Positions 47,353-58,649 of a DNA stretch of 64,000 nt are shown in pieces; the stretch's first letter is position 1, and every line of letters begins with the position of its first letter. The notes under the pieces are model-generated. The model had not been told where the DNA came from. It ran no database searches and worked only from the letters and a program-made list of their open reading frames with translations. The DNA is from Pseudomonadota bacterium (GTDB taxonomy: Bacteria > Pseudomonadota > Gammaproteobacteria > Steroidobacterales > Woeseiaceae): contig JBCBKO010000002.1 in assembly GCA_038521865.1 (NCBI GenBank), positions 594,798 to 658,797 on the forward strand, in the 5' to 3' direction. The translations under genes and the position numbers were made by a program.

Positions 47353-47440
47353 GGTCGCGAATCCCGGGTTGGTCGGGCGGGGAGTATAGCAGGCATCGAC
47401 GGCGCTGGACTTCAACCGCGACCGCTTGGAAGATGGCGCC

Positions 47441-48595
47441 ATGAGGATGCGCTTTGTGATGAGTCTGGCCTTCTGCGTTGTTCTTGGGGTATGGCCAGCT
47501 ACGACCGACGCCCAGTCACGGGTAGCACGCGAGCAGGACCTGCAAGCCGTGCGGGCGCGCATCACAACATTAAGTCAACAAATGGAGCGACGTACCCGCG
47601 AGCGCGACGCCCTGGTCGGCGAGCTTGGCGAGACCGAGACGGCGCTGGCTGATGCACAGCGGGAGCGGCGCGCCGTCCGGGAGCGCCAACGCGAGGTCAC
47701 CGCGCGTCTTCGAGCCGCCGAGGCCGATGTCGAGTTGCAGAAAGCGGCGATGGAGGGGGAGCGCGAGGAACTTGGTAGGCAGCTGGCCGCCGCCTACCGC
47801 AGTGGACGTCAGGAAAAGCTCAAACTGCTGCTCAACCCTAGAGAGCCCGCTGCGCTCGGACGCTTACTGACTTACTACGATTACCTGAATGAAGCACGGC
47901 TCGCGAATGTGACGGCACTGGCTGCCGGCATGCAGAAGCTGAAGGCGCTTAGCGATACGGTACGCGAAGAGCGGACATCGCTTGAGGTCCTGGCTGAGAG
48001 TAATGCTGCGCTGATCAAGGATCTTGAAAAAGGCCAGACCAAGCGCGCAAAGTTGCTCGCAAGTATCGATGAAAAGCTGGCGGCCGAGCAGAACCTTTTG
48101 GGCTCGCTACGCCAACAGGAGTCAGACCTCGCCGAGTTGTTGGCGGAGCTCGCGGATATTCTTTCCGATTACCCCATCGACGCAGAGGTGCCGATGGCAG
48201 AGCTTCGCGGGGAGCTGACCTGGCCGGTCAGTGGTCGAGTGGCGACGAACTTTGGGCAGCGTCGCGGCGGCACGATCCGCAGCTCCGGGTTGGTTCTGGC
48301 CACCGCGGCGGGTACCGAAATTCGAGCGATTTACCATGGACGCGTGGCATTCGCAGATTGGTTGCCTGGCATGGGCATGTTGATGGTGATCGATCACGGC
48401 GATGATTTGCTGTCTTTATATGGCTACAACGAGACGTTACTGAAGGAGGTCGGCGATTGGGTGACACCGGGTGAGGTGATTGCCACCGTTGGCAACACAG
48501 GGGGTCAGGCTGCACCGGCGCTGTATTTCGAGCTGCGTAAAGCGAGCAAGCCGGTCAATCCGCGACCGTGGTTTCGTGGTGCGCCGAACGGCTGA
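47441..48595 (+). CDS. envC: Murein hydrolase activator EnvC (coiled coil + degenerate LytM/M23 domain)
   Basis: Signal peptide MRMRFVMSLAFCVVLGVWPATTDA, long coiled coil, C-terminal M23 fold with YFELR in place of the catalytic HLHFE. First ATG is 47441 (the ORF-track start 47426 is a TTG). Confidence 0.8.
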   Translation: MRMRFVMSLAFCVVLGVWPATTDAQSRVAREQDLQAVRARITTLSQQMERRTRERDALVGELGETETALADAQRERRAVRERQREVTARLRAAEADVELQKAAMEGEREELGRQLAAAYRSGRQEKLKLLLNPREPAALGRLLTYYDYLNEARLANVTALAAGMQKLKALSDTVREERTSLEVLAESNAALIKDLEKGQTKRAKLLASIDEKLAAEQNLLGSLRQQESDLAELLAELADILSDYPIDAEVPMAELRGELTWPVSGRVATNFGQRRGGTIRSSGLVLATAAGTEIRAIYHGRVAFADWLPGMGMLMVIDHGDDLLSLYGYNETLLKEVGDWVTPGEVIATVGNTGGQAAPALYFELRKASKPVNPRPWFRGAPNG

Positions 48596-48679: not shown

Positions 48680-49846
48680 TTGTCGATCTTGAGTCGCGTT
48701 TGTATCGCCGCAATGGTGGGTCTGACACTGGCGCTTGCGCTGGTGGCCGGCGATCGCCTGATTCTGCAGCGCGATTCGGCAACGACAACTACCTCGCGAC
48801 CCAGTCCATTGCTGAACGAGGTGCTGGAGCGGGTGCATCGCGACTACGTCGATCCGGTCGACGACAGTGAGTTAATGGAAGCCGCGGTTCGCGGCATGGT
48901 CGCCGATTTGGACCCGCACTCTGAATTCCTCGATGCCAGCGCCTTCGAAGATGTTCGTTCTGGCGCAGAGGGCCGTTATTCCGGGGTCGGCTTGGAAGTC
49001 GCGTTACGCGAGGGTGACGTTACGGTCATCACGCCTTTTGAGGGCTCTCCCGCACAGCGCGCTGGTATCCGCACGGGTGACATCATTCTCGCGATTGATG
49101 AGATGGCCGTCTCAACGACCGCCCTCCAGGAAACAGTGTCGAGGATGCGTGGCCCAAGTGGCAGCGCGGTAACCTTGAGCGTCCTGCGAGAGGGTTTCGA
49201 CGCGCCATTGCGATTCAATCTGGAGCGCGAAAGGCTGACCGTCGAGAGTGTTCAGGGCGCATTGCTCGCACCGGATATCGGGCATTTGGTGATACGGCAA
49301 TTCCACACGAGGACCGCAGTGGAGCTCGAGCTGGTGCTGCGCGAACTGACGGAAGAGAACCTCACCCCACTGCGGGCCATTGTGCTCGATTTGCGCAACA
49401 ATCCCGGCGGGTTACTCGATTCCGCAATCGCTGTCACCGATCTGTTTCTTGAGGAAGGCCTGATCGTCAGTGCTCGTGGGCGTGGTGATGATGCAGCATT
49501 TGAATATCTCGCAACGCGCGGTTCGCTGCTGCCTGATGCACAAATGGTGGTGCTGGTGAACGGCGCTTCGGCATCCGCAGCGGAAATCGTTGCCGGCGCG
49601 CTCAAGGATCACGAAAGAGCGCGCCTGATTGGCACATCGACGTTCGGAAAAGGCCTTGTACAGACCGTTATGCCGCTATCGCGGGGGCGGGCTATCAAGC
49701 TCACAACCTCGCGTTACTACACACCTGACGGTCATTACATTCACGACCGGGGTATCACGCCGAACATTGTCGTTCGTGACAACGGCCCAGAGGACCGGCA
49801 GTTGGCGCGAGCGCTTCAGGAATTGACCGGCGGTCATCGACGCTGA
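48680..49846 (+). CDS. ctpA: Carboxy-terminal processing protease (S41, CtpA/Prc-like)
   Basis: 388 aa: PDZ region (GVGLEV..GSPAQRAGIRTGDIIL), catalytic NGASASAAEI and TFGKG. TTG start preceded by GGGAG. Confidence 0.88.
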   Translation: MSILSRVCIAAMVGLTLALALVAGDRLILQRDSATTTTSRPSPLLNEVLERVHRDYVDPVDDSELMEAAVRGMVADLDPHSEFLDASAFEDVRSGAEGRYSGVGLEVALREGDVTVITPFEGSPAQRAGIRTGDIILAIDEMAVSTTALQETVSRMRGPSGSAVTLSVLREGFDAPLRFNLERERLTVESVQGALLAPDIGHLVIRQFHTRTAVELELVLRELTEENLTPLRAIVLDLRNNPGGLLDSAIAVTDLFLEEGLIVSARGRGDDAAFEYLATRGSLLPDAQMVVLVNGASASAAEIVAGALKDHERARLIGTSTFGKGLVQTVMPLSRGRAIKLTTSRYYTPDGHYIHDRGITPNIVVRDNGPEDRQLARALQELTGGHRR

Positions 49847-50601
49847 TGCGAATCTTGTTGTGTCTTTTTTTCTGCTTCGCCCTTCCAAGCGCAGCGGCCA
49901 GCCCTCCGCGGGTCGCCATCATTCTTGACGATATTGGCTATCGACATTCCGCTGATCTCAGGGCGCTGGATCTTCCGCCAGAGATCGCTTTCGCTGTGAT
50001 TCCGGGTTCTGTGCATGGCAGAGTTCTCGGTGCTGCTGCAGTCCAACAAGGCCGAGAGGTGCTAATACATCTGCCCATGGAGCCACTCGTGCCGCACCCA
50101 CGGTCGCTCGGTCCGCTCTCGCTCAGCGAAGACGCTGATGAAATCTCGGTTCGACGCGTACTGGATGCAGCGCTCCAGGAGCTGCCATTCGCCCACGGGT
50201 TGAACAATCACATGGGCAGCCGGCTGACCCAGCAGCCAACTCACATGCGTTGGCTGATGGAGACGCTGGTGTGCAAGCGCAACCTTTACTTCGTCGACAG
50301 CTACACAACTGAGCGCAGCGTCGCGCTGGCGGCCGCTCGCGACCATGCAGTGCCGGCAGCGCGTCGAGACGTGTTTCTGGATCATGATCTGGATCCTGCG
50401 GCCATCGAGTACCAGGTCGAAAGACTGGTCCGATTGGCAACACAGCGCGGACACGCGCTGGCTATTGGTCACCCGCATGATGCGACGCTTAACGCCTTGC
50501 ATGCGTTACCGCAACTATTGCAAAAACACGGGATTGAACTGGTGTCTCCCAGTGAGCTGATCTCCAGCGCGCCGATCCAGAGTCCGGTCGAGGCGGATTA
50601 A
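49846..50601 (+). CDS. Divergent polysaccharide deacetylase family protein (YibQ-like)
   Basis: 251 aa: signal peptide, VAIILDDIGY, NNHMGSR. TGATG overlap with the ctpA stop. Same envC-yibQ neighbourhood as in E. coli. Confidence 0.8.
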   Translation: MRILLCLFFCFALPSAAASPPRVAIILDDIGYRHSADLRALDLPPEIAFAVIPGSVHGRVLGAAAVQQGREVLIHLPMEPLVPHPRSLGPLSLSEDADEISVRRVLDAALQELPFAHGLNNHMGSRLTQQPTHMRWLMETLVCKRNLYFVDSYTTERSVALAAARDHAVPAARRDVFLDHDLDPAAIEYQVERLVRLATQRGHALAIGHPHDATLNALHALPQLLQKHGIELVSPSELISSAPIQSPVEAD

Positions 50602-51143
50602 TGAGCAGGAATTTTCGCTATTGCCCTGTCTGCGCGACGGCACTCGTACCACAGCAGCATGGTGGCCGTATGCGCCTCGCGTGCCCTAATGCGAGTTGCG
50701 GCTGGGTGCACTGGGACAATCCGACGCCCGTGGTCGCTGCTATTGCGGAGAGAAACGACGCTGTCATTCAGGTTCGCAGTATTGGCTGGCCCCCAGGTTG
50801 GTTCGGGTTGGTTACCGGTTTTCTCGAAGCGGGAGAAACGCCGGAGGAAGGCGTGTTGAGAGAGGTTGAAGAGGAAATCGGCCTGTCCGGCACCCTCGGC
50901 GAGTTGGTGGGGCTGTATCCGTTCCACAGGATGAACCAGCTTCTCATCGTCTATCATGTCTCTATTCCGGATGGAGATATCCGACTGGACGAAACGGAAC
51001 TCGAGGACTGGCGCGAAGTCCCACTGGCAGAGGTTCGTCCCTGGGCGAGTGGCACCGGCTACGCCTTGCGCGACTGGATGCGGGGCCGCGGTTATGATTT
51101 CCCTGATGAGGCATTATTAAGCCTGGAGCGACGAGGAACATGA
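50601..51143 (+). CDS. NUDIX hydrolase with N-terminal zinc ribbon
   Basis: 180 aa: CPVC..(17)..CPNASC, then an intact Nudix box [28 protein letters not shown] overlap with the yibQ-like stop. Confidence 0.85.
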
Positions 51144-51994
51144 TGAGAGGTTTTGTGATCAGCTTTGCGATGCTTATCGCGATGGCGTCATCCGGCGCGG
51201 TTTGGTCACAGTCAGGTGATCTCTTGAATAACGCCATCTGTCCCGAGGTGTGGCAACCGGTGTGCGGTGCAGACGGCAATACGTATGCGAATCTCTGTCA
51301 GGCGAAAAAGGCCGAAGTTGCTGTTGCTGCCGACGGAGAATGCGAGGGCGAAGACGACCAGCTCGCCACAGAGCCAGACGCCAACGATCGTTGCCCGCCC
51401 CGATTCGCGCCGGTCTGTGGCAGCGATGGCAATACGTACGCTAACAGTTGCTTCGCGACGCTCGCTGGTGTTGAAACGGAATCGACCGGTTTGTGCGACG
51501 ACCAGACATGTCCACAGGATCGGCTGCCGGTTTGCGGTAGAAATGGACAAACATTTTTGAACCGGTGCGAGGCTGATCGTGCTCGAGTGGGCATCTTGTA
51601 TACGGGCACCTGCGATACTGCCTCCTGTCCGGATGTCTTTTCGCCTGTGTGCGGTGCAAACGGGGAAACCTACGCAAATGCTTGTGCCGCTGACGCCGCC
51701 GGAATCGATGTGGTGCGTGACTCTGCGTGTGGTCAGCGTCGCTGTCCGGCGTTGTTCGTGCCGGTCTGTGGCGCGGACGACGTGACCTATGGGAACGCCT
51801 GCCAAGCCGAGCGCGCAGGTGTGCGAATCGTGGCGCCAGGCGATTGCGCCGGCAATAATTGTCCCAGATTGTTTCAGCCGGTCTGCGGGAGCGACGGTCG
51901 TACCTACGATAATCGCTGCCTTCTGGATGCGGCTGGCCAAAGGTTGCTGTATGCCGGGGAGTGCTCAACTACGGGTATCGGTGCGGCGAAGTGA
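51140..51994 (+). CDS. Secreted protein made of six tandem Kazal-like (four-Cys) serine protease inhibitor domains
   Basis: 284 aa: signal peptide [23 protein letters not shown], then six CP-x5-PVCG-x-(D/N)G-x-T(Y/F)-x-N-x-C..C units. ATGA overlap with the NUDIX stop. Confidence 0.8.
51239..51964 (+). repeat. Six in-frame ~117-153-nt coding repeats (Kazal-like units)
   Basis: First Cys of each unit at aa 34, 85, 124, 163, 202, 241. 24 Cys in total, 4 per unit. Confidence 0.85.
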
Positions 51995-52488
51995 CCTCAA
52001 AGAAAGTGAGCCTGCGGCGTCGGGTGTCCGACTGGCTGCGACGCGGTGATGGGCTGCCGAAACTGAATTACGACGCGCTGGTCGACCCTGATCCGAAAGA
52101 CGTCGAAGCCGTAGCTCGAGGCTTGCGCGCGTATAACAACCGATTCGCGGGTCCCTTGAACGAGAAGCGACTGGGTTGTTTTGTCCGGGATGCGTCTGGC
52201 CGTGTGGTCGGCGGCTCACACGGTCATGTGCTGTGGTCATGGTTGTACATCGAGCGGTTGTGGGTCGAATCGGACTTGCGCTCAAATGGTGTTGGCACAC
52301 AAGTTCTCGCACGACTGGAGCGGCTGGCGTTATCCGAGGGCGTTCACCGCTTCCACGTCCAGACGACATCATTCCAGGCGCTCGACTTTTATATTAAGCA
52401 GGGCTACGAGGTGTACGCTCAGCTTGAGGATAATCCGCCCGGCCACACGGATTACAGCCTGAAAAAAATCATTAACCTCGATCCCTGA
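51991..52488 (+). CDS. GNAT family N-acetyltransferase
   Basis: Motif A region [32 protein letters not shown] 51991 forms a GTGA overlap with the Kazal gene stop (the ORF-track start is GTG 51961). Confidence 0.72.
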
Positions 52489-52571
52489 TTCTTTTTTTGA
52501 ACCGTTTTTCCTGCGGCCGCTTCTTACCGGTCGACCCAACTGGTCTCAATTCAGTTTTAGGAGAAACGTTG

Positions 52572-53744
52572 ATGAAACTCAGGAATGCAATTGCCCGCAG
52601 TGTGTTGTGCGCAGGCGCAGTGTTGACCGCGGGGATGGCGCTCGCCGAAGACACGTCCTCAATCCCCTCAGTCGTTGTCACCATTGAAAACAGCGCCCCC
52701 TCGCGCGGCAGTTTCCAGACACCGTTCTGGATCGGTTTTCATGATGGGCAATTTGATTTATATAACCGCGGCGAGCCACTGTCCGCCGAAGGCCTTGTTC
52801 CTGGCGATGCGGTAGAGCGGGTGGCCGAAGACGGCATCATAGGGCCGCTGAACGCCGCGTTTGCCGAGGCGCAGCCCGGGGCGTCGCAGTCGATTGTTTT
52901 CGGACCTTCGGGACCATTGGCGCCAGGCGACTCTGCGTCGACGACACTCAACGTCAACCCAGAGCTGGATCGGTATTTCAGCTACATCTCGATGGTGTTG
53001 CCGAGCAACGATGCTTTCATCGCCAACGGCAACCCTTTTGCGCATGAGATTTTCGATCGTCGTGGGCGGTTTGTTGCGAAGTCATTCGCGGTACCGGGGA
53101 ATGCAGTGCTCGATGCGGGAACAGAGCTGAATGATGAAATCGCAGCAAACACAGCATTTCTCAATCAGGCAGGTCCAGATATTGGCGTCGCTACAGATGG
53201 CGTAGTCGAGATTCATCCGGGCTTCCGGCTCGATGGCAGCTTTCCCGACCGCGTACTCACGCACCCGGTCCTCGGTGTCGCTGACTTCACTGCCACCAAC
53301 TATCGTGCAGCGACGGTCAGCTTTCGGTTTGTCGATCTCGGCAAAAGAAACAAGTTTCGCATAAGGTTGAATCCACGCCAGGAAGTCAGCTCTACCCTCG
53401 TCGATAGCCGGGGTAGTGGCACTGCGACCGCAGTTTCCGACGGCGTCGACTCGGTCAGCATTGAAGGGCTGTTCCGTCGACTATCAAGCGATGTCGTTGC
53501 AGCACACCTGCATCTCGGCGCGGCGGGTACGAATGGTCCGGTCGTCGCTGATCTTTCAGCGTTTGTCAGCAACCACGGCATTTCAGCTGCAGTGTACGCG
53601 AGTGATGTCACCGGCCCGTTGGCGGATTCGCCCTCACCGATGCTGGCGCTGTTGAATGAGATGGCCGCAGGTAATGTCTATCTAAACATCCATACCGCCA
53701 ACAATCCGGCGGGAGAGATTCGCGGGCAATTGCGACTCAGATAA
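52572..53744 (+). CDS. Secreted spondin_N + CHRD two-domain protein
   Basis: 390 aa from ATG 52572 (RBS AGGAG): signal peptide, spondin-like N-domain (VTIENSAPSRGSFQTPFWIGFHDG.., MVLPSNDAFIANG), C-terminal CHRD (AAHLHLGAAGTNGPVV, VYLNIHTANNPAGEIRGQL). Confidence 0.7.
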   Translation: MKLRNAIARSVLCAGAVLTAGMALAEDTSSIPSVVVTIENSAPSRGSFQTPFWIGFHDGQFDLYNRGEPLSAEGLVPGDAVERVAEDGIIGPLNAAFAEAQPGASQSIVFGPSGPLAPGDSASTTLNVNPELDRYFSYISMVLPSNDAFIANGNPFAHEIFDRRGRFVAKSFAVPGNAVLDAGTELNDEIAANTAFLNQAGPDIGVATDGVVEIHPGFRLDGSFPDRVLTHPVLGVADFTATNYRAATVSFRFVDLGKRNKFRIRLNPRQEVSSTLVDSRGSGTATAVSDGVDSVSIEGLFRRLSSDVVAAHLHLGAAGTNGPVVADLSAFVSNHGISAAVYASDVTGPLADSPSPMLALLNEMAAGNVYLNIHTANNPAGEIRGQLRLR

Positions 53745-53782: not shown

Positions 53783-54925
53783 TTACCTGCCCGTTGTGGC
53801 TTGTTGTTCCAACATCCGGTCGGACCAATTCAGCAGGCGGGCGATAATTTCATCATGCGTTGCGTCGGGATAACGATGCATAAGGCATGCGGCCATAGCC
53901 GCAACAATCGGTGCAGCGATCGAGTGACCGGTGACTACATCGTAGGAGGCCATGGGCGCCGTGCTGATCGCTGAACGCGGAGCGATGACCACCGTCATGG
54001 TGTCGTTTGCCGCCATTGGTTGAATGCTGCCCACGGCGTAAATGACGCCTGGTCGAGGAGCAGGAAAGCGACGTTCCGGTGATCGGTCTTCGTCATAGGC
54101 CGCGATGACCAAACTGCCATTGCGGATTAGTATGCCAACCAGGCGATCGAGCAATGGGTCGCGAACTCCCGAAAGGCTGAGGTTAACGATATCGGGGCGC
54201 AAATCGATCGCGGCATTCAGTGCTTTGGACAGAGTGCGTGTGCTGCAGATGCCCTTGCCTCGATCTTGTTCCCAACAAGCGCGCAGTAGATGTGTTTGCG
54301 CCTCGTCAGCAATCCCTCGCATACCCTTTTCCGATCGAGGTTTCGATGAGATCAGGCCTACCACCGCCGTCCCATGACGCTCCTTCATCGGCATGCCTTG
54401 CTGACCGACAAAATCGCTGACGGTGAGTTTAGCGTCCAGAAGGTCCGGGTGGCTGGTGTCGACATCAGTATCAATAACCGCAATGACGGTGTTGCCACCC
54501 CGTTCAGTGACCGTGGCCATGAAATCGTTGAGCAGATCGTTGGGGGTCGGTGCCATGGCACTGGACTCGACACGCAATCCCTGTTCGTTCTGAATCCAGA
54601 GCACTCTCGGGTCTATGCGTAGCTTTTGCAACGTCTGCGAATCCGCGCCTCCGATTTCGATGCAGTAAACACCAACCTGATTGATTGGCCAGTCTGCCAA
54701 CACCTCAACGTCGTAGGTAGCCGCGATATCCATCGCGATCTGATGCACATCAACGCTGTGCTCACTATTCATCTCGCGGCTGTACATTTCGCCCGACATA
54801 CCATCGCCGCTCATCGGGTCGTCAATGACGACAACCCACCGGTCCGATTCAGGCGAAGGTAATACCGAACAAGCCATTACGCAGAACGAAAGCGTGGCTA
54901 AAGCGCCGACTCGCAAGCGACGCAT
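53783..54925 (-). CDS. Subtilisin-like serine protease (S8), predicted lipoprotein with its own pro-like segment
   Basis: Asp AVIDTDVD, His HGTAVVG, Ser TGHSIAAP. Lipobox-like FCVMAC. The start is either ATG 54925 (2 nt after the anti-sigma stop) or GTG 54931 (GTGA overlap). Confidence 0.85.
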   Translation of the reverse strand: MRRLRVGALATLSFCVMACSVLPSPESDRWVVVIDDPMSGDGMSGEMYSREMNSEHSVDVHQIAMDIAATYDVEVLADWPINQVGVYCIEIGGADSQTLQKLRIDPRVLWIQNEQGLRVESSAMAPTPNDLLNDFMATVTERGGNTVIAVIDTDVDTSHPDLLDAKLTVSDFVGQQGMPMKERHGTAVVGLISSKPRSEKGMRGIADEAQTHLLRACWEQDRGKGICSTRTLSKALNAAIDLRPDIVNLSLSGVRDPLLDRLVGILIRNGSLVIAAYDEDRSPERRFPAPRPGVIYAVGSIQPMAANDTMTVVIAPRSAISTAPMASYDVVTGHSIAAPIVAAMAACLMHRYPDATHDEIIARLLNWSDRMLEQQATTGR

Positions 54926-54927
54926 GA

Positions 54928-55491
54928 TCACAGCGTCTCGACAAACCGTACAGCCGGTTCCTTGCGCAGCGCATTTATCGTTTGGGTTAGGTCTTCAGAG
55001 GCTGGAACCCGGACGTCGGCAGCACCAACTTCAGGGTAACTCGTCATCAATTCGAGACCATAGCGTTCTAGCAGCAGCTGCATATCTGAGCTGCTAGTCA
55101 CCGCCAGTCGAATTATCGGCTCGGCCGTGACAGCCGGTTGATCTGTCAGCGTCTCAAACTGTGGTGTCGGCTTAGTCAGTGGGTAGGTGAAAATCACCCC
55201 AGCGACCAGAGCCGCTGCGATACCAACGGGGAGTGCTCGCATGCGCTGTCGCGGTTTGGACTCTCTACCGTTGAGCATACGTTCAAAGGCGAGCTGATCC
55301 GGGCGCTGCTCGAGTGGCTCGTCCGTGCGGCGAATCGCGTTTCTTAGATCGCGTTCCCACTCGACTTGTTGTCGAAATTCCTGGTGTTCGCGCATGGCGG
55401 CCTCCACGGCTTCGCGATCAGCTTCAGACAGATGTCCACCAAGGTAGTCGGGTATCAGGAGCGACAGCGCTTGCAATGAGTCCGCGTTCAC
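54928..55491 (-). CDS. Single-pass anti-sigma factor with a subtilisin-propeptide (I9)-like periplasmic domain
   Basis: 187 aa from GTG 55491 (GTGA overlap with the sigma stop, verified). N-terminal LLIPDYLGGHLSEADREAVEAAM.., TM ALPVGIAAALVAGVIFTY, periplasmic tail ending ALRKEPAVRFVETL. Confidence 0.6.
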   Translation of the reverse strand: MNADSLQALSLLIPDYLGGHLSEADREAVEAAMREHQEFRQQVEWERDLRNAIRRTDEPLEQRPDQLAFERMLNGRESKPRQRMRALPVGIAAALVAGVIFTYPLTKPTPQFETLTDQPAVTAEPIIRLAVTSSSDMQLLLERYGLELMTSYPEVGAADVRVPASEDLTQTINALRKEPAVRFVETL

Positions 55492-56159
55492 GCCGGCCGC
55501 CTTCCTGCAAGGCGATTCGGGTCTGCCAGTCGGGACACGACATGACGGATGCGTGTCCTTGCGTGGTGCAGGCGCGTCTTTACCGTGCCCTGTGGGCACT
55601 GCACGATCTCGCTGATCTCGCTGGTGGAATAGCCTTCAAAGTATGAGAGCTCAATAACCATTCGTTGTCGATGATTGAGTTGTTGCATTGCAGCTGAAAC
55701 CAGCTCGGTTTCCTCAAACTGCTCGTTTGTGCTCGTTGCAAGCTCGGTGGGTTCACGCCACAAACGGCTTAATAGTGAGCGCTTGCGCTGTTCCTTCTTC
55801 AGGACACGGACGCATTGACGATAAGCGATCGCGAATATCCAGCTTGAAGGCTTCGCCTCAGCTCTAAAGCCGTCCGCATGCTCCCAGATACTCAGCATGA
55901 CGTCGTTATAGGTTTCGTCGATCAGTGGTTGATCATCCGTCAGGCGTCGGAGAAATCCTCTAAGCCTGCCCTGATAGCGGTCATAAATCATCCGCATGGC
56001 GGCTCGATCCCGCTCTCGGCCGATTCGCCCAAGCAGCTTTGCATCTTCCCGATCACTTTCCGTGCTCCGTCCGGGTGCACTCCCGGTGGATTCTTGCCCA
56101 TCTTGAAGAGTAAGAGCACGTTCTTCCTGCAACGGTTCAATCGTCACGGCAGAATTCAC
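55488..56159 (-). CDS. ECF-type RNA polymerase sigma-70 factor
   Basis: 223 aa. Region 2 (..MIYDRYQGRLRGFLRRL.. DVMLSIWE), region 4 (RMVIELSYFEGYSTSEISEIVQCPQGTVKTRLHHAR). GTG start; the ~35-aa N-terminal extension is uncertain. Confidence 0.88.
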   Translation of the reverse strand: MNSAVTIEPLQEERALTLQDGQESTGSAPGRSTESDREDAKLLGRIGRERDRAAMRMIYDRYQGRLRGFLRRLTDDQPLIDETYNDVMLSIWEHADGFRAEAKPSSWIFAIAYRQCVRVLKKEQRKRSLLSRLWREPTELATSTNEQFEETELVSAAMQQLNHRQRMVIELSYFEGYSTSEISEIVQCPQGTVKTRLHHARTRIRHVVSRLADPNRLAGRRPA

Positions 56160-56213: not shown

Positions 56214-58649
56214 CTAGAAATCTTCGATGAGTCGTCCCCGAGAGTCTTTCTGGTGCGGTAACCAGACTAGCCCCACAAAGTGGATTTGGATATCGGTCGA
56301 CTTTGGCTTGATCTCGACCTCTGTCAATTCCTCATCCTGTGCGTCGTAACGCGCATCGAGCGCTGCAACATCTGCATCAAAAGTTTCTTGCAACATGCGC
56401 AAGTCTTCACGCACACGCGCTGCTGTTTCTTCAGCGCGAGCTACGTCACCCGCCTCTTTACGCATCCCGCCGACGTTCTTGACGGCCGACCCAATGCTGC
56501 GCGCTGACGTCGACGATACGCGTTTGCGGCCCAGCACTGCCCCAAGAATGGCGGTACCGAATGAAATTGCGGTGTCGAGTTTTTTCTTGCGGCTTTGTTC
56601 CGACTCTCTTTCGATTGCCTGTTCAGCACGCATCAAACGCGCTTCCAGGGTGTTCACCTTGCTGTTGTAGCGCTTTCTCAGCTTCCCAACGGCGATGTCA
56701 CGTTGCTCCGATGCCAGAACCTGCAGGCGCGCCCGGAAGTCGCCCTCTGATTCGTGCGCCTCTGAGGTCACCTTCATTGCCGCGCTTCGGTAGAGCACAA
56801 CCGGTTGGCTCTTTCGCAACCAGCGTTTGAAGTTACGTTCCCATTTGGCGTAAGACTTCGGATTGGTCAGCGGATCCGGAATCGGCGAATGGCCGCTTTT
56901 CTCGTCCGGGCGCTCGCTCAACAGATCGTCGAGTTGAATGTCGAGTATCGCCGATTCGTCCCAGTCAACCGGCACTGGGCCATCTTCAGGTATCACGCTT
57001 GCCACGCAGTGTCTTTCTGTCTCCACCTTGTAGCGGGCGGAACTATAGACCAGCTCCGCAGCACCAATGACCGCAGGTCGATATACCGTGTCGATGTCAC
57101 CTGCGCCTTCCACCCAGAACTGGCGAATACTCTTGTCGAGTTTCGGCGTTGTAGCAACTGCAGCTTTCCACAATGCCTTGCTATCGCTCGCCGACAGGGT
57201 TGCCGCTTGCATGGCCTTGTTCGCTTCCTTCTGGAATTCGCCGCGACGTTTGTCCATCAGCGTGCGAATCTGGTCGCGTGTCAGAGGTCCTGCAAGGTAC
57301 GACATCACCCAGCGCGTGCCGAAGACCACCGGCTCGGACTCGTGAACGTTGTGCAGCAGAAAACGACGCTTACCCAGTCCGGCTAACGTTTGCTCCATTG
57401 CCTCGCGGTCGAATTTGCCACCGGCAGCTGCGCCCTCCAGCCCTTCCATTACCCGCGCCTTGTCACGCTCGGTCTGTAGTCGACCGATCATCCAGGTGCC
57501 CGTGTTCGACAGGCCTTTGTAATCAAGGTCAACGGGGTTTTGTGTTGAGAGCACCAACCCAAGACCGTAGGCGCGCGCTTGCTTCAGCAGCGTAAGCAGC
57601 AACTGCTTCGAGGGTGGGTTCGCAACCGGTGGCATGTATCCGAAGATCTCATCCATGTAGAGCATGGCACGCAGGCTCCCGGTGCCTGGCTGTGCACGCA
57701 TCCACGCGATGAGGTTGTTGAGCAACATACACACGAAGAACATGCGCTCGGCATCGGATAGATGCGCGATCGATAGGATCGACACGCGTGGTTTTCCACT
57801 GTCGGTGTACAACAGGTTCGCTGCACTCAATGGCTCGCCTTCAAGCCACGCCTCAAAACCGGGCGCTGCGAGCAGGCTGTTGAGCTGCATCGCGAGCGCA
57901 AAACGGTCTTTCGCGGGATAGACATCGTCGAGCGCCATGACACCGATCTTCTCGAGCGGTGGGTTTTGGATCACGGCGATCAGCGTCGGGAGGTCGAGTG
58001 ACTGTCCTTGCTGCCAGTAGTGATCCAGCAGGTTGGCGATCAGGATGTGTTCGCGACTGGTGACCGGGTCTGCGTTGATGCCAAGGAGTGCAAGAATGCT
58101 CGTGGCTGTGACCTGTACGCGCTCGCGATAAAGGTCGCGATCCTCGCGCAGCGCGGGCGCAGGCGCGTCGAACGACTTCAAAACAGAAATGGGCAACCCG
58201 GCGTTTGAACCGGGGGTGAAAATATTGAGATCAACACGTTCGCGGAACGTGCGCACACGCGCTGGGTCCTGGCCCCATTGCCCAATACCCTTTTTCCAGA
58301 GCGCGGCCTGATCGGCGGCGAATTGATCGACCGTCTGACCTTTGTTCGACGCTTCCTGCGCGTTGACCCACGGCGCAAAGTCTTCGCCCTTGAACTGTGG
58401 GAAGGTCAGCATGAGGTTGCCGAGATCGCCTTTCGGATCGATGGCAATGACAGGAATCGAGTCCATTGCCGCTTCCTCGATCATGCCGACGCCGAGGCCC
58501 GTTTTGCCGCTGCCGGTCATACCGATGATAACCGCGTGCGTGTTCAGGTCTTTGGAATCGTAGAGCACCATATCGTCGGTGAGTTCATCGTTAGCCTCAT
58601 CGATTCGTTTACCCAGATAGAAAGCGCCCAGCTTTTCGAAACCGCTCAT
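56214..58649 (-). CDS. HerA/FtsK-superfamily P-loop ATPase (YjgR/DUF853-like core) with a ~350-aa uncharacterised C-terminal extension
   Basis: 811 aa: Walker A GMTGSGKTGLG followed by AIDPKGDL, Walker B LYMDEIFGY, STQNPVDLDYKGLSNTGTWMIGRLQTERD. The C-terminal part is coiled-coil-rich. Confidence 0.72.
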   Translation of the reverse strand: MSGFEKLGAFYLGKRIDEANDELTDDMVLYDSKDLNTHAVIIGMTGSGKTGLGVGMIEEAAMDSIPVIAIDPKGDLGNLMLTFPQFKGEDFAPWVNAQEASNKGQTVDQFAADQAALWKKGIGQWGQDPARVRTFRERVDLNIFTPGSNAGLPISVLKSFDAPAPALREDRDLYRERVQVTATSILALLGINADPVTSREHILIANLLDHYWQQGQSLDLPTLIAVIQNPPLEKIGVMALDDVYPAKDRFALAMQLNSLLAAPGFEAWLEGEPLSAANLLYTDSGKPRVSILSIAHLSDAERMFFVCMLLNNLIAWMRAQPGTGSLRAMLYMDEIFGYMPPVANPPSKQLLLTLLKQARAYGLGLVLSTQNPVDLDYKGLSNTGTWMIGRLQTERDKARVMEGLEGAAAGGKFDREAMEQTLAGLGKRRFLLHNVHESEPVVFGTRWVMSYLAGPLTRDQIRTLMDKRRGEFQKEANKAMQAATLSASDSKALWKAAVATTPKLDKSIRQFWVEGAGDIDTVYRPAVIGAAELVYSSARYKVETERHCVASVIPEDGPVPVDWDESAILDIQLDDLLSERPDEKSGHSPIPDPLTNPKSYAKWERNFKRWLRKSQPVVLYRSAAMKVTSEAHESEGDFRARLQVLASEQRDIAVGKLRKRYNSKVNTLEARLMRAEQAIERESEQSRKKKLDTAISFGTAILGAVLGRKRVSSTSARSIGSAVKNVGGMRKEAGDVARAEETAARVREDLRMLQETFDADVAALDARYDAQDEELTEVEIKPKSTDIQIHFVGLVWLPHQKDSRGRLIEDF

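Follow-up and report, generated by a model that had tools for sequence, protein, structure and literature searches.

What would a bacterium gain from a single chain of six Kazal domains, each with a different residue at its predicted reactive site? The question is raised by an open reading frame (ORF) at positions 51140-51994 (+) of a 64,000-nt stretch of contig JBCBKO010000002.1 (assembly GCA_038521865.1, a Pseudomonadota bacterium of the family Woeseiaceae); this whole stretch is hereafter called the window. An initial annotation, made from the letters of the DNA alone, had described the product as a secreted, six-headed Kazal-like protein with four cysteines per head. We find that the protein belongs to the Kazal family (MEROPS I1), and we consider it fairly probable that it acts as a Sec-exported, multi-headed, standard-mechanism inhibitor of serine endopeptidases that protects the cell envelope.

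Six Kazal heads with four cysteines each

The ORF begins with ATG and encodes 284 aa plus a stop codon. Its product matches the Pfam families Kazal_1 (PF00050; E=3.5e-45; 152.2 bits, cutoff 21) and Kazal_2 (PF07648; E=2.8e-39; 133.4 bits, cutoff 22.8) in six stretches each, which bears out the proposed six-headed architecture, and it also matches Kazal_CFAI (E=1.8e-18); an NCBIfam search of the protein returned no relevant family. The Kazal match is far beyond chance and the pattern is real; in none of its frames does the window contain a further Kazal-like motif outside this gene. A scripted count gives 24 cysteines, arranged in six 35-residue units of four with the same spacing throughout, C-x7-C-x10-C-x14-C (steps of 8, 11 and 15), and reproduces exactly the residues that had been listed as P1 candidates at the second position after the first cysteine of each unit: E36, P87, Q126, D165, A204 and R243. 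All six heads match the core C-x7-C-G-x-D-G-x-T-Y-x-N-x-C with a P3 Cys and a P15' Asn, head 3 having a variant form of this core.

Head 1 (aa 34-68; 51239-51343, + strand as for all heads) carries the loop C-P-E36-V-W-Q, with Glu at P1 and Trp at P2', and is modelled with predicted local distance difference test (pLDDT) values of 88-96. An acidic linker of 16 aa leads to head 2 (aa 85-119; 51392-51496), with the loop C-P-P87-R-F-A, Pro at P1 and Phe at P2'. From there on, linkers of 4 residues each join head 2 to head 3 (aa 124-158; 51509-51613; loop C-P-Q126-D-R-L, P1 Gln, P2' Arg, core variant GRNGQTF), head 4 (aa 163-197; 51626-51730; loop C-P-D165-V-F-S, P1 Asp, P2' Phe), head 5 (aa 202-236; 51743-51847; loop C-P-A204-L-F-V, P1 Ala) and head 6 (aa 241-275; 51860-51964; loop C-P-R243-L-F-Q, P1 Arg, P2' Phe). 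Since the heads are only 42-54% identical to one another in pairwise comparison, the duplications that gave rise to them are old. The N-terminus, read by eye, contains a predicted Sec signal peptide (aa 1-23; 51140-51208, +) with a positively charged n-region, a 12-residue hydrophobic core and a VWS/Q site, and without a lipobox Cys; comparable signal-like N-termini end just ahead of head 1 in most orthologues.

The first and fifth of the six classical Kazal cysteines had been thought to be missing from every head, and alignments with characterized inhibitors agree with this. When head 2 is aligned by phmmer with the leech-derived tryptase inhibitor LDTI (E=3.5e-9), Cys V of LDTI is aligned to Leu108, and extending the alignment puts Cys I at Asp83. 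In the alignment with OMTKY3, Cys16, Cys24 and Cys35 correspond to Cys85, Cys93 and Cys104, the P1 residue Leu18 corresponds to Pro87, and Cys38 stands opposite Thr107. The retained cysteines are therefore II, III, IV and VI, the I-V pair is absent, and P1 is found at Cys II + 2. The same placement of P1, which the initial annotation had adopted, agrees with the crystal description of CrSPI-1 bound to subtilisin, where Cys1 occupies P3 (PMC3082530). Judged by these alignments, the heads are not classical six-cysteine Kazal domains of the ovomucoid/PSTI type; their cysteine positions match the two-disulfide type of GmSPI-2 and CrSPI-1 domain 1, both by alignment and by superposition of the model described below, and we infer the disulfides II-IV and III-VI in each head.

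AlphaFold2, run on a 22-sequence alignment, predicts the order E-E-H-E (hairpin, helix, strand) six times, with a mean pLDDT of 81.5 and values of mostly 80-96 within the heads; the geometry between domains is uncertain in this model (predicted template modelling score, pTM, of 0.31). In Foldseek comparisons with the PDB, individual heads match LDTI (1an1_I; 0.4 A in root-mean-square deviation, rmsd, over 35 residues, 60% identity, TM 0.86), GmSPI-2 (4hgu; rmsd 1.1 A over 37 residues, 51% identity, TM 0.86) and CrSPI-1 domain 1 (rmsd 0.5-0.6 A). The sequence search of the PDB is led by ovomucoid (E=2.3e-9) and includes agrin, CrSPI-1, rhodniin, LDTI and Galleria silk protease inhibitor 2; residues 161-223, which cover heads 4-5, align to CrSPI-1 (3qtl_D) with E=5.2e-9. 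All structural matches are Kazal or follistatin proteins, and the ecotin family is absent from the Pfam and NCBIfam matches.

For the whole chain, the best Foldseek matches are follistatins and rhodniin, themselves multi-Kazal chains, and they fit far less closely than the matches of single heads. The follistatin complexes at the top of this search, together with the rank of agrin among the top sequence matches, raise the alternative that the heads are non-inhibitory modules like those of follistatin, agrin and SPARC, in which case the array would serve for binding, as a spacer or as matrix in the envelope or biofilm. However, these matches stem from multi-domain length, and head by head the nearest sequences and structures are those of true inhibitors, namely LDTI, GmSPI-2 and CrSPI-1.

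Distribution and conservation of the array

We scanned species-representative prokaryotic genomes with the window protein and obtained 70 loci, 60 of them with a Kazal match and about 55 orthologous. Three proteins (L001, L002 and L005, from metagenome-assembled genomes, MAGs, labelled Pseudomonadota or Chromatiales) are 95-99% identical to the window protein, two (L003 and L004) are 70% identical, and identity is 42-61% for those from about 50 MAGs of Woeseiaceae or of unclassified Gammaproteobacteria. A profile built from Woeseia-type orthologues yielded at least 539 confirmed stretches, the best 80 of which all belong to Woeseiaceae or gammaproteobacterial MAGs. As a check independent of the Kazal sequence, we searched with the upstream YibQ protein and inspected the 80 closest loci: a tandem four-cysteine Kazal array lies downstream of yibQ on the same strand in 78 of them, with six heads in 64 of these 78 arrays, and in the two remaining loci the contigs end 0.3-0.7 kb from yibQ. 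An orthologue from the cultured Woeseia oceani is not among the best loci listed in the Kazal, profile and YibQ scans. The array is almost universal in the Woeseiaceae-like marine sediment bacteria examined, and a regular architecture of five to eight heads appears, from the sequences compared, to be typical of this gammaproteobacterial clade. Sequencing runs that contain the sequence are DNA metagenomes (marine, plastisphere and microbial mat).

A multi-headed Kazal protein had been regarded as unusual for a bacterium, and this expectation is not borne out, given the yibQ-anchored arrays and the reach of the domain beyond the clade. When species-representative prokaryotic genomes were scanned at the DNA level with a degenerate form of the generic motif PVCGxDGxTYxNxC, at least 120 matches came from many bacterial phyla and some archaea. 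The taxa listed include Myxococcota, Bradymonadales, Bacteriovoracaceae, Bacteroidota (including cultured Hymenobacter), Desulfobacterota, Planctomycetota and phyla of the Candidate Phyla Radiation (CPR), as well as Roseibium aggregatum, Nitrosomonas and Nitrosospira from the Alpha- and Betaproteobacteria. Since the motif matches listed span so many phyla, bacterial Kazal domains are not rare. Other bacterial Kazal proteins mostly have a single head and 75-130 aa or are large Cys-rich proteins; several of them (P0037, P0066 and P0097) contain the same four-cysteine head, and such proteins already bear the NCBI/GenBank label 'Kazal-type serine protease inhibitor domain-containing protein'. The taxonomic check likewise went against novelty, the gene being common in its clade and the four-cysteine form being already represented by GmSPI-2 and CrSPI-1 domain 1. 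Among loci L071-L150, the strict motif is often found in lineages with a predatory or gliding habit (Polyangiaceae, Kofleriaceae, Bradymonadales, Bacteriovoracaceae and Saprospiraceae); it is also present in the ammonia oxidisers Nitrosomonas, Nitrosospira and Nitrososphaera, and in CPR bacteria and DPANN-type archaea (Micrarchaeota and Altiarchaeota).

Many of the top database matches by E-value are multi-Kazal proteins of oomycetes, crustaceans and insects, a ranking that would fit contamination by eukaryotic DNA or the very recent acquisition of the gene by this one genome from a eukaryote. However, the gene stands within a bacterial operon in which stop and start codons overlap, its GC content (0.59) is close to that of the window (0.57), and it is found at the same position in dozens of independent MAGs, where its divergence tracks that of its neighbours (99, 95, 70 and about 50% identity). 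Synteny and composition refute a eukaryotic origin of this kind, which we regard as extremely improbable.

The array is under strong purifying selection: the ratio of nonsynonymous to synonymous substitutions (dN/dS) is 0.01-0.06 in comparisons with close orthologues, and all P1 residues are unchanged both between the window and L005 (dS of about 1.1) and between L003 and L004 (dS saturated). We compared 357 heads from 55 orthologues, all of which fall into a 35-aa register with invariant cysteine spacing. Scaffold positions vary little (P4' Pro in 356 heads, P5' Val in 355, P12' Thr in 338, P13' Tyr in 335 and P15' Asn in 352), 250 heads have Pro at P2, and 307 have Tyr, Phe or Trp at P2'; variable residues are seen at P1, P1', P3', P8', P11', P14', P16' and P18'.

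The identity of P1 follows head position. It is Met in the first head of 38 of 49 orthologues, Glu or Asp in the second head of 42, and Arg in the last head of 36, so that the order in the wider family reads Met, Glu/Asp, small or basic residues, Arg. The string of the window clade, E-P-Q-D-A-R, is derived, and that of L003 and L004 is Q-P-T-E-Q-R. The penultimate head combines a near-frozen scaffold with a P1 that ranks second among its 35 positions by entropy; in the window this is head 5, the scaffold of which is the most conserved across species (68-94% identity to the penultimate head of orthologues). Within single proteins, contact positions differ in 81% of head pairs and non-contact positions in 55%, in agreement with the diversified panel of heads that had been perceived in the window protein. 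In our reading, the array would represent a fixed, inherited panel of differing specificities rather than an arms-race locus.

Genomic context and candidate target proteases

Which proteases could such a panel face? Upstream of the Kazal gene, Pfam matches identify an M23/EnvC-like gene (47426-48595), an S41 CtpA-like peptidase with a PDZ domain (48680-49846) and a YibQ-type divergent polysaccharide deacetylase (49846-50601), followed by a NUDIX hydrolase (50601-51143) that lies between yibQ and the Kazal gene in L001-L005 only. Downstream are a GNAT acetyltransferase (51961-52488), the listed GTG start of which overlaps the last 34 nt of the Kazal gene, and a 415-aa protein (52497-53744) with a C-terminal CHRD (chordin-like) domain (E=3.4e-22). 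All these genes are on the + strand, and the junctions from M23 to CHRD are overlapping or nearly gapless. The stop codon of the NUDIX gene (TGA, 51141-51143) overlaps the first ATG of the Kazal gene (ATGA). A Shine-Dalgarno-like GAGGAA, read from the sequence at 51133-51138 (+), is better spaced relative to a second ATG at 51143, which may be the true start and would shorten the protein by one Met. The true start of the GNAT ORF is probably further downstream than the listed GTG. The CHRD protein, two genes downstream of the Kazal gene in the co-oriented string, has an N-terminal hydrophobic signal-like segment; the CHRD and Kazal domains, here close together, are both best known from animal extracellular proteins.

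Among the 60 loci with a Kazal match, S41 is a neighbour in 52, YibQ in 50, M23 in 44 and a HerA-like ATPase in 33, absences being mostly due to contig ends. The NUDIX, GNAT, CHRD, extracytoplasmic function (ECF) sigma factor and anti-sigma-like genes each occur in only five, and an S8 subtilase gene in only 3 of about 55 orthologous loci (L001, L002 and L005). These counts identify the envC-ctpA-yibQ string, and not the S8 gene, as the conserved link. No terminator-like site was detected from the S41 gene to the Kazal gene, the scanned region has no match to a sigma-70-like promoter, and the Kazal gene is probably co-transcribed with the envC-like, ctpA and yibQ envelope genes.

The conserved linkage, which the initial annotation had noted for the S41 gene of the window, suggests a first candidate target. 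The array could be a dedicated regulator of the co-operonic S41 CtpA, or of an EnvC/CtpA cell-wall hydrolase circuit, and would then tune the turnover of peptidoglycan hydrolases in the periplasm. The M23-S41-YibQ string followed by the Kazal gene is the only conserved association of the array, on the same strand and with short or overlapping junctions. However, a single target leaves five to eight heads with different conserved P1 residues unexplained, and a NUDIX gene, a methyltransferase-like gene or nothing at all may be wedged between yibQ and the Kazal gene. In other species, the latter begins 17-160 nt past yibQ, overlaps its upstream gene (where there is a gap to that gene, it is often 17-125 nt), or follows a 205-aa ORF (7255-7872 in L034, 7306-7923 in L013) that overlaps the yibQ stop and contains the S-adenosylmethionine (SAM)-methyltransferase-type motif LEVGFGSGLNL. 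Because of these varied inserts, a gene parked at the end of an operon fits better than a tight functional pair. Moreover, the known targets of canonical Kazal loops are Ser-His-Asp proteases from families S1 and S8, whereas catalysis in S41 enzymes depends on a Ser/Lys dyad that a PDZ domain gates, we know of no Kazal-S41 pair, and the envC-ctpA-yibQ string is, as far as is known, widespread in Gammaproteobacteria without a Kazal gene. A dedicated regulator of CtpA is therefore unlikely in our view. We give a somewhat smaller chance still to the proposal that at least one head inhibits or docks the S41 protease or another periplasmic housekeeping protease and thereby sets peptidoglycan hydrolase turnover; if so, the array would be a first on two counts, as a Kazal inhibitor whose target is endogenous to a bacterium and as a canonical-loop inhibitor that acts on an S41 enzyme. 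The 205-aa ORF probably explains the combination of Kazal and methyltransferase Pfam domains in the metagenomic protein P0004. Many orthologous loci carry this ORF at the place that the NUDIX gene takes in the window; besides L034 and L013, about 20 Woeseiaceae loci have a gap of 630-740 nt there.

A second candidate is the S8 subtilase lipoprotein encoded at 53783-54931 on the - strand (Pfam Peptidase_S8, E=9e-20), which the array would silence in the envelope as its cognate inhibitor. The initial annotation had pointed to this gene as a neighbour and possible target; it is indeed present, 1.8 kb downstream of the Kazal gene, but its scarcity among the array loci makes it a weak candidate. 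Four-cysteine Kazal heads are documented subtilisin inhibitors, and there is one Kazal precedent with an acidic P1. Against this, L003 and L004, 70% identical in their arrays, are without S8, and in the window the S8 gene is on the opposite strand in a separate unit with the ECF sigma factor and the anti-sigma-like ORF. Nor does a peptidase recur beside other bacterial Kazal genes: when we scanned 121 immediate neighbours at 70 loci against Pfam, no peptidase family was among the 25 most frequent families, which include Por_Secre_tail, histidine kinase/response regulator, SPOR and similar ones. The S8 subtilase was rejected as a conserved partner on account of its presence in only 3 of about 55 loci, and we consider it very unlikely that the array is its cognate inhibitor.

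The unit to which the S8 gene belongs (53783-56159, - strand) has features of its own. The ECF sigma factor (55488-56159, -) is followed by the anti-sigma-like ORF (54928-55599, -) and the S8 gene, the GTG start of which overlaps the preceding stop (GTGA); the subtilase has a lipoprotein-type signal (..VMAC/S). The anti-sigma-like ORF contains one transmembrane segment and a C-terminal periplasmic domain that matches the Fervidolysin N-terminal prodomain (PF22148, E=1.6e-6), which has a fold like that of subtilase propeptides. Because the split between this ORF and the S8 gene is the same in L001, L002 and L005, it does not result from a frameshift error; in L003 and L004 the sigma factor and the anti-sigma-like ORF are retained but S8 is missing. 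Judging by these domains, the unit is possibly a protease-gated ECF switch. Beyond it, an 811-aa HerA/DUF87-like ATPase (56214-58649, -) is conserved downstream of the Kazal gene as its convergent neighbour, with 80-97% identity in the five closest loci and 48-65% in 28 Woeseiaceae-type loci; its Pfam match is confined to the N-terminal P-loop region.

Proposed function and relation to known inhibitors

How, then, might the array work? We propose that the chain of six two-disulfide, non-classical Kazal domains is exported via Sec and is then periplasmic or released. Each head would offer a rigid, substrate-like loop with Cys at P3, Pro at P2, a variable P1 and a mostly aromatic P2', held in place by the II-IV and III-VI disulfides and the invariant P15' Asn, and this loop would block the catalytic site of a protease with the subtilisin or the chymotrypsin fold in the Laskowski manner. 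The acidic heads and those with an aromatic P2' would plausibly suit subtilases, and the Arg head trypsin-like enzymes. In the protease-rich habitats of marine sediments and biofilms, the array would shield envelope proteins from serine proteases, whether secreted by the cell itself and met in transit or released by its neighbours; a large repertoire of peptidases has been noted in Woeseiaceae (PMC12175321). The ecotin-like shield that the initial annotation had suggested is thus plausible. We favour such a general shield over a cognate enzyme-inhibitor pair, because no protease neighbour recurs elsewhere among the 25 most frequent neighbour families.

Inhibition is the best supported model, because the loop features of characterized inhibitors are all present in the heads. 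GmSPI-2, the silk protease inhibitor 2 of Galleria mellonella (4hgu, 2m5x), has four cysteines paired II-IV and III-VI and is potent against subtilisin and proteinase K (PMC4169406); it shares the cysteine pattern and spacing of the window heads and lacks the I-V bridge, but is a single 36-residue insect domain as opposed to six tandem bacterial heads. LDTI (1an1, 2kmo; non-classical group II) is the closest single-head relative in sequence and fold and shares the C-P-x loop and the core PVCGSDGxTYANSC, but is an animal single-headed protein that keeps the I-V disulfide and has Lys at P1. The non-classical inhibitor CrSPI-1 of the horseshoe crab (3qtl, 3pis) resembles the array in its tandem heads, short linkers and canonical binding per head: it binds two subtilisins with a Ki of 1.43 nM through loops that start at the P3 Cys, its domain 2 has Glu at P1, and the P2' Tyr stacks on the enzyme (PMC3082530). 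In CrSPI-1, domain 1 begins with the P3 Cys and is held by just two disulfides, the number predicted for the window heads; CrSPI-1 differs in having two heads instead of six and in being an arthropod immune protein.

Among microbial proteins, EPI1, EPI10 and EPI11 of Phytophthora are likewise secreted and multi-domain and include four-cysteine, subtilisin-inhibiting domains, Epi11 being also a database match of the window protein (E=4.5e-43). The two-disulfide domain EPI1a is a stable inhibitor of subtilisin A, and the conserved contact residues of Kazal domains are the P3 Cys and the P15' Asn (PMC1236909). The atypical Phytophthora domains lack Cys III and VI, however, not I and V, and the proteins are eukaryotic effectors against host subtilases. 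Ovomucoid and ovoinhibitor share with the array the presence of several heads with different P1 residues in one chain and the logic of P3 Cys, P15' Asn and P2' Tyr, but consist of vertebrate six-cysteine domains of about 56 residues with longer linkers. Other bacterial Kazal proteins come from Polyangiaceae, Sandaracinaceae, Alphaproteobacteria, Saprospiraceae and further groups; several of them have heads of the C-x7-C-x10-C-x14-C type, and heads in the large Cys-rich ones are scattered, yet none has a regular array of five to eight heads tied to envC-ctpA-yibQ. As a functional analogue we propose ecotin (MEROPS I11), a Sec-exported, periplasmic Gram-negative inhibitor of broad specificity without an adjoining cognate protease gene, which has been proposed to guard against exogenous proteases (PMC9904509); it differs in its unrelated fold and mechanism, forms a dimer that chelates two proteases, and has no sequence similarity to the array.

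Several observations weigh against inhibition by the whole panel. In the P1-variant series of OMTKY3, Pro, Asp, Glu and Gln at P1 are poor for many chymotrypsin-fold enzymes, so the heads with these residues may be weak or inactive, and the 4-residue linkers between heads 2-6 may block simultaneous binding of proteases at adjoining heads. The best whole-chain structural matches are the non-inhibitory follistatins, and the only conserved neighbouring protease, S41, is not among the targets known for Kazal domains. When orthologues are compared, contact residues do not vary significantly more than other positions (permutation P=0.09-0.62), and the classic Kazal signature of hypervariability is absent, only the P1 of the penultimate head standing out. 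No RNA runs contain the sequence, the matched ones being DNA metagenomes only.

The unfavourable P1 residues and the lack of hypervariability at contact sites are what non-inhibitory modules would lead one to expect, and this reading is possible for some heads, for example the one with P1 Pro. For the array as a whole it appears rather unlikely, since the P3 Cys, the P15' Asn and the aromatic P2' are nearly invariant, and head-by-head conservation of P1 is unexpected for a functionless loop. The same conservation of P1 makes the hypothesis of an inhibitory array easy to test.

The fold, the four-cysteine variant and the multi-headed design all have precedents, bacterial homologues are already known, and our finding leaves the understanding of the Kazal mechanism and fold unchanged. 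What is new is the near-universal array in an abundant sediment clade, the conservation of P1 by head position and the attachment of the gene to the envC-ctpA-yibQ operon. In the searchable literature, which did not cover the review by Kantyka et al. (cited in PMC4189545), we found no experimental study of any bacterial Kazal protein, and nothing relevant on Kazal domains in Woeseiaceae or myxobacteria. Woeseiaceae are a core group of marine sediments with a proteolytic lifestyle, in which arrays of five to eight heads are near universal. If the array is an active inhibitor with multiple specificities, it would provide a compact, disulfide-stabilized bacterial scaffold with six different reactive loops and would reveal an overlooked layer of interplay between proteases and anti-proteases in sediments and biofilms.

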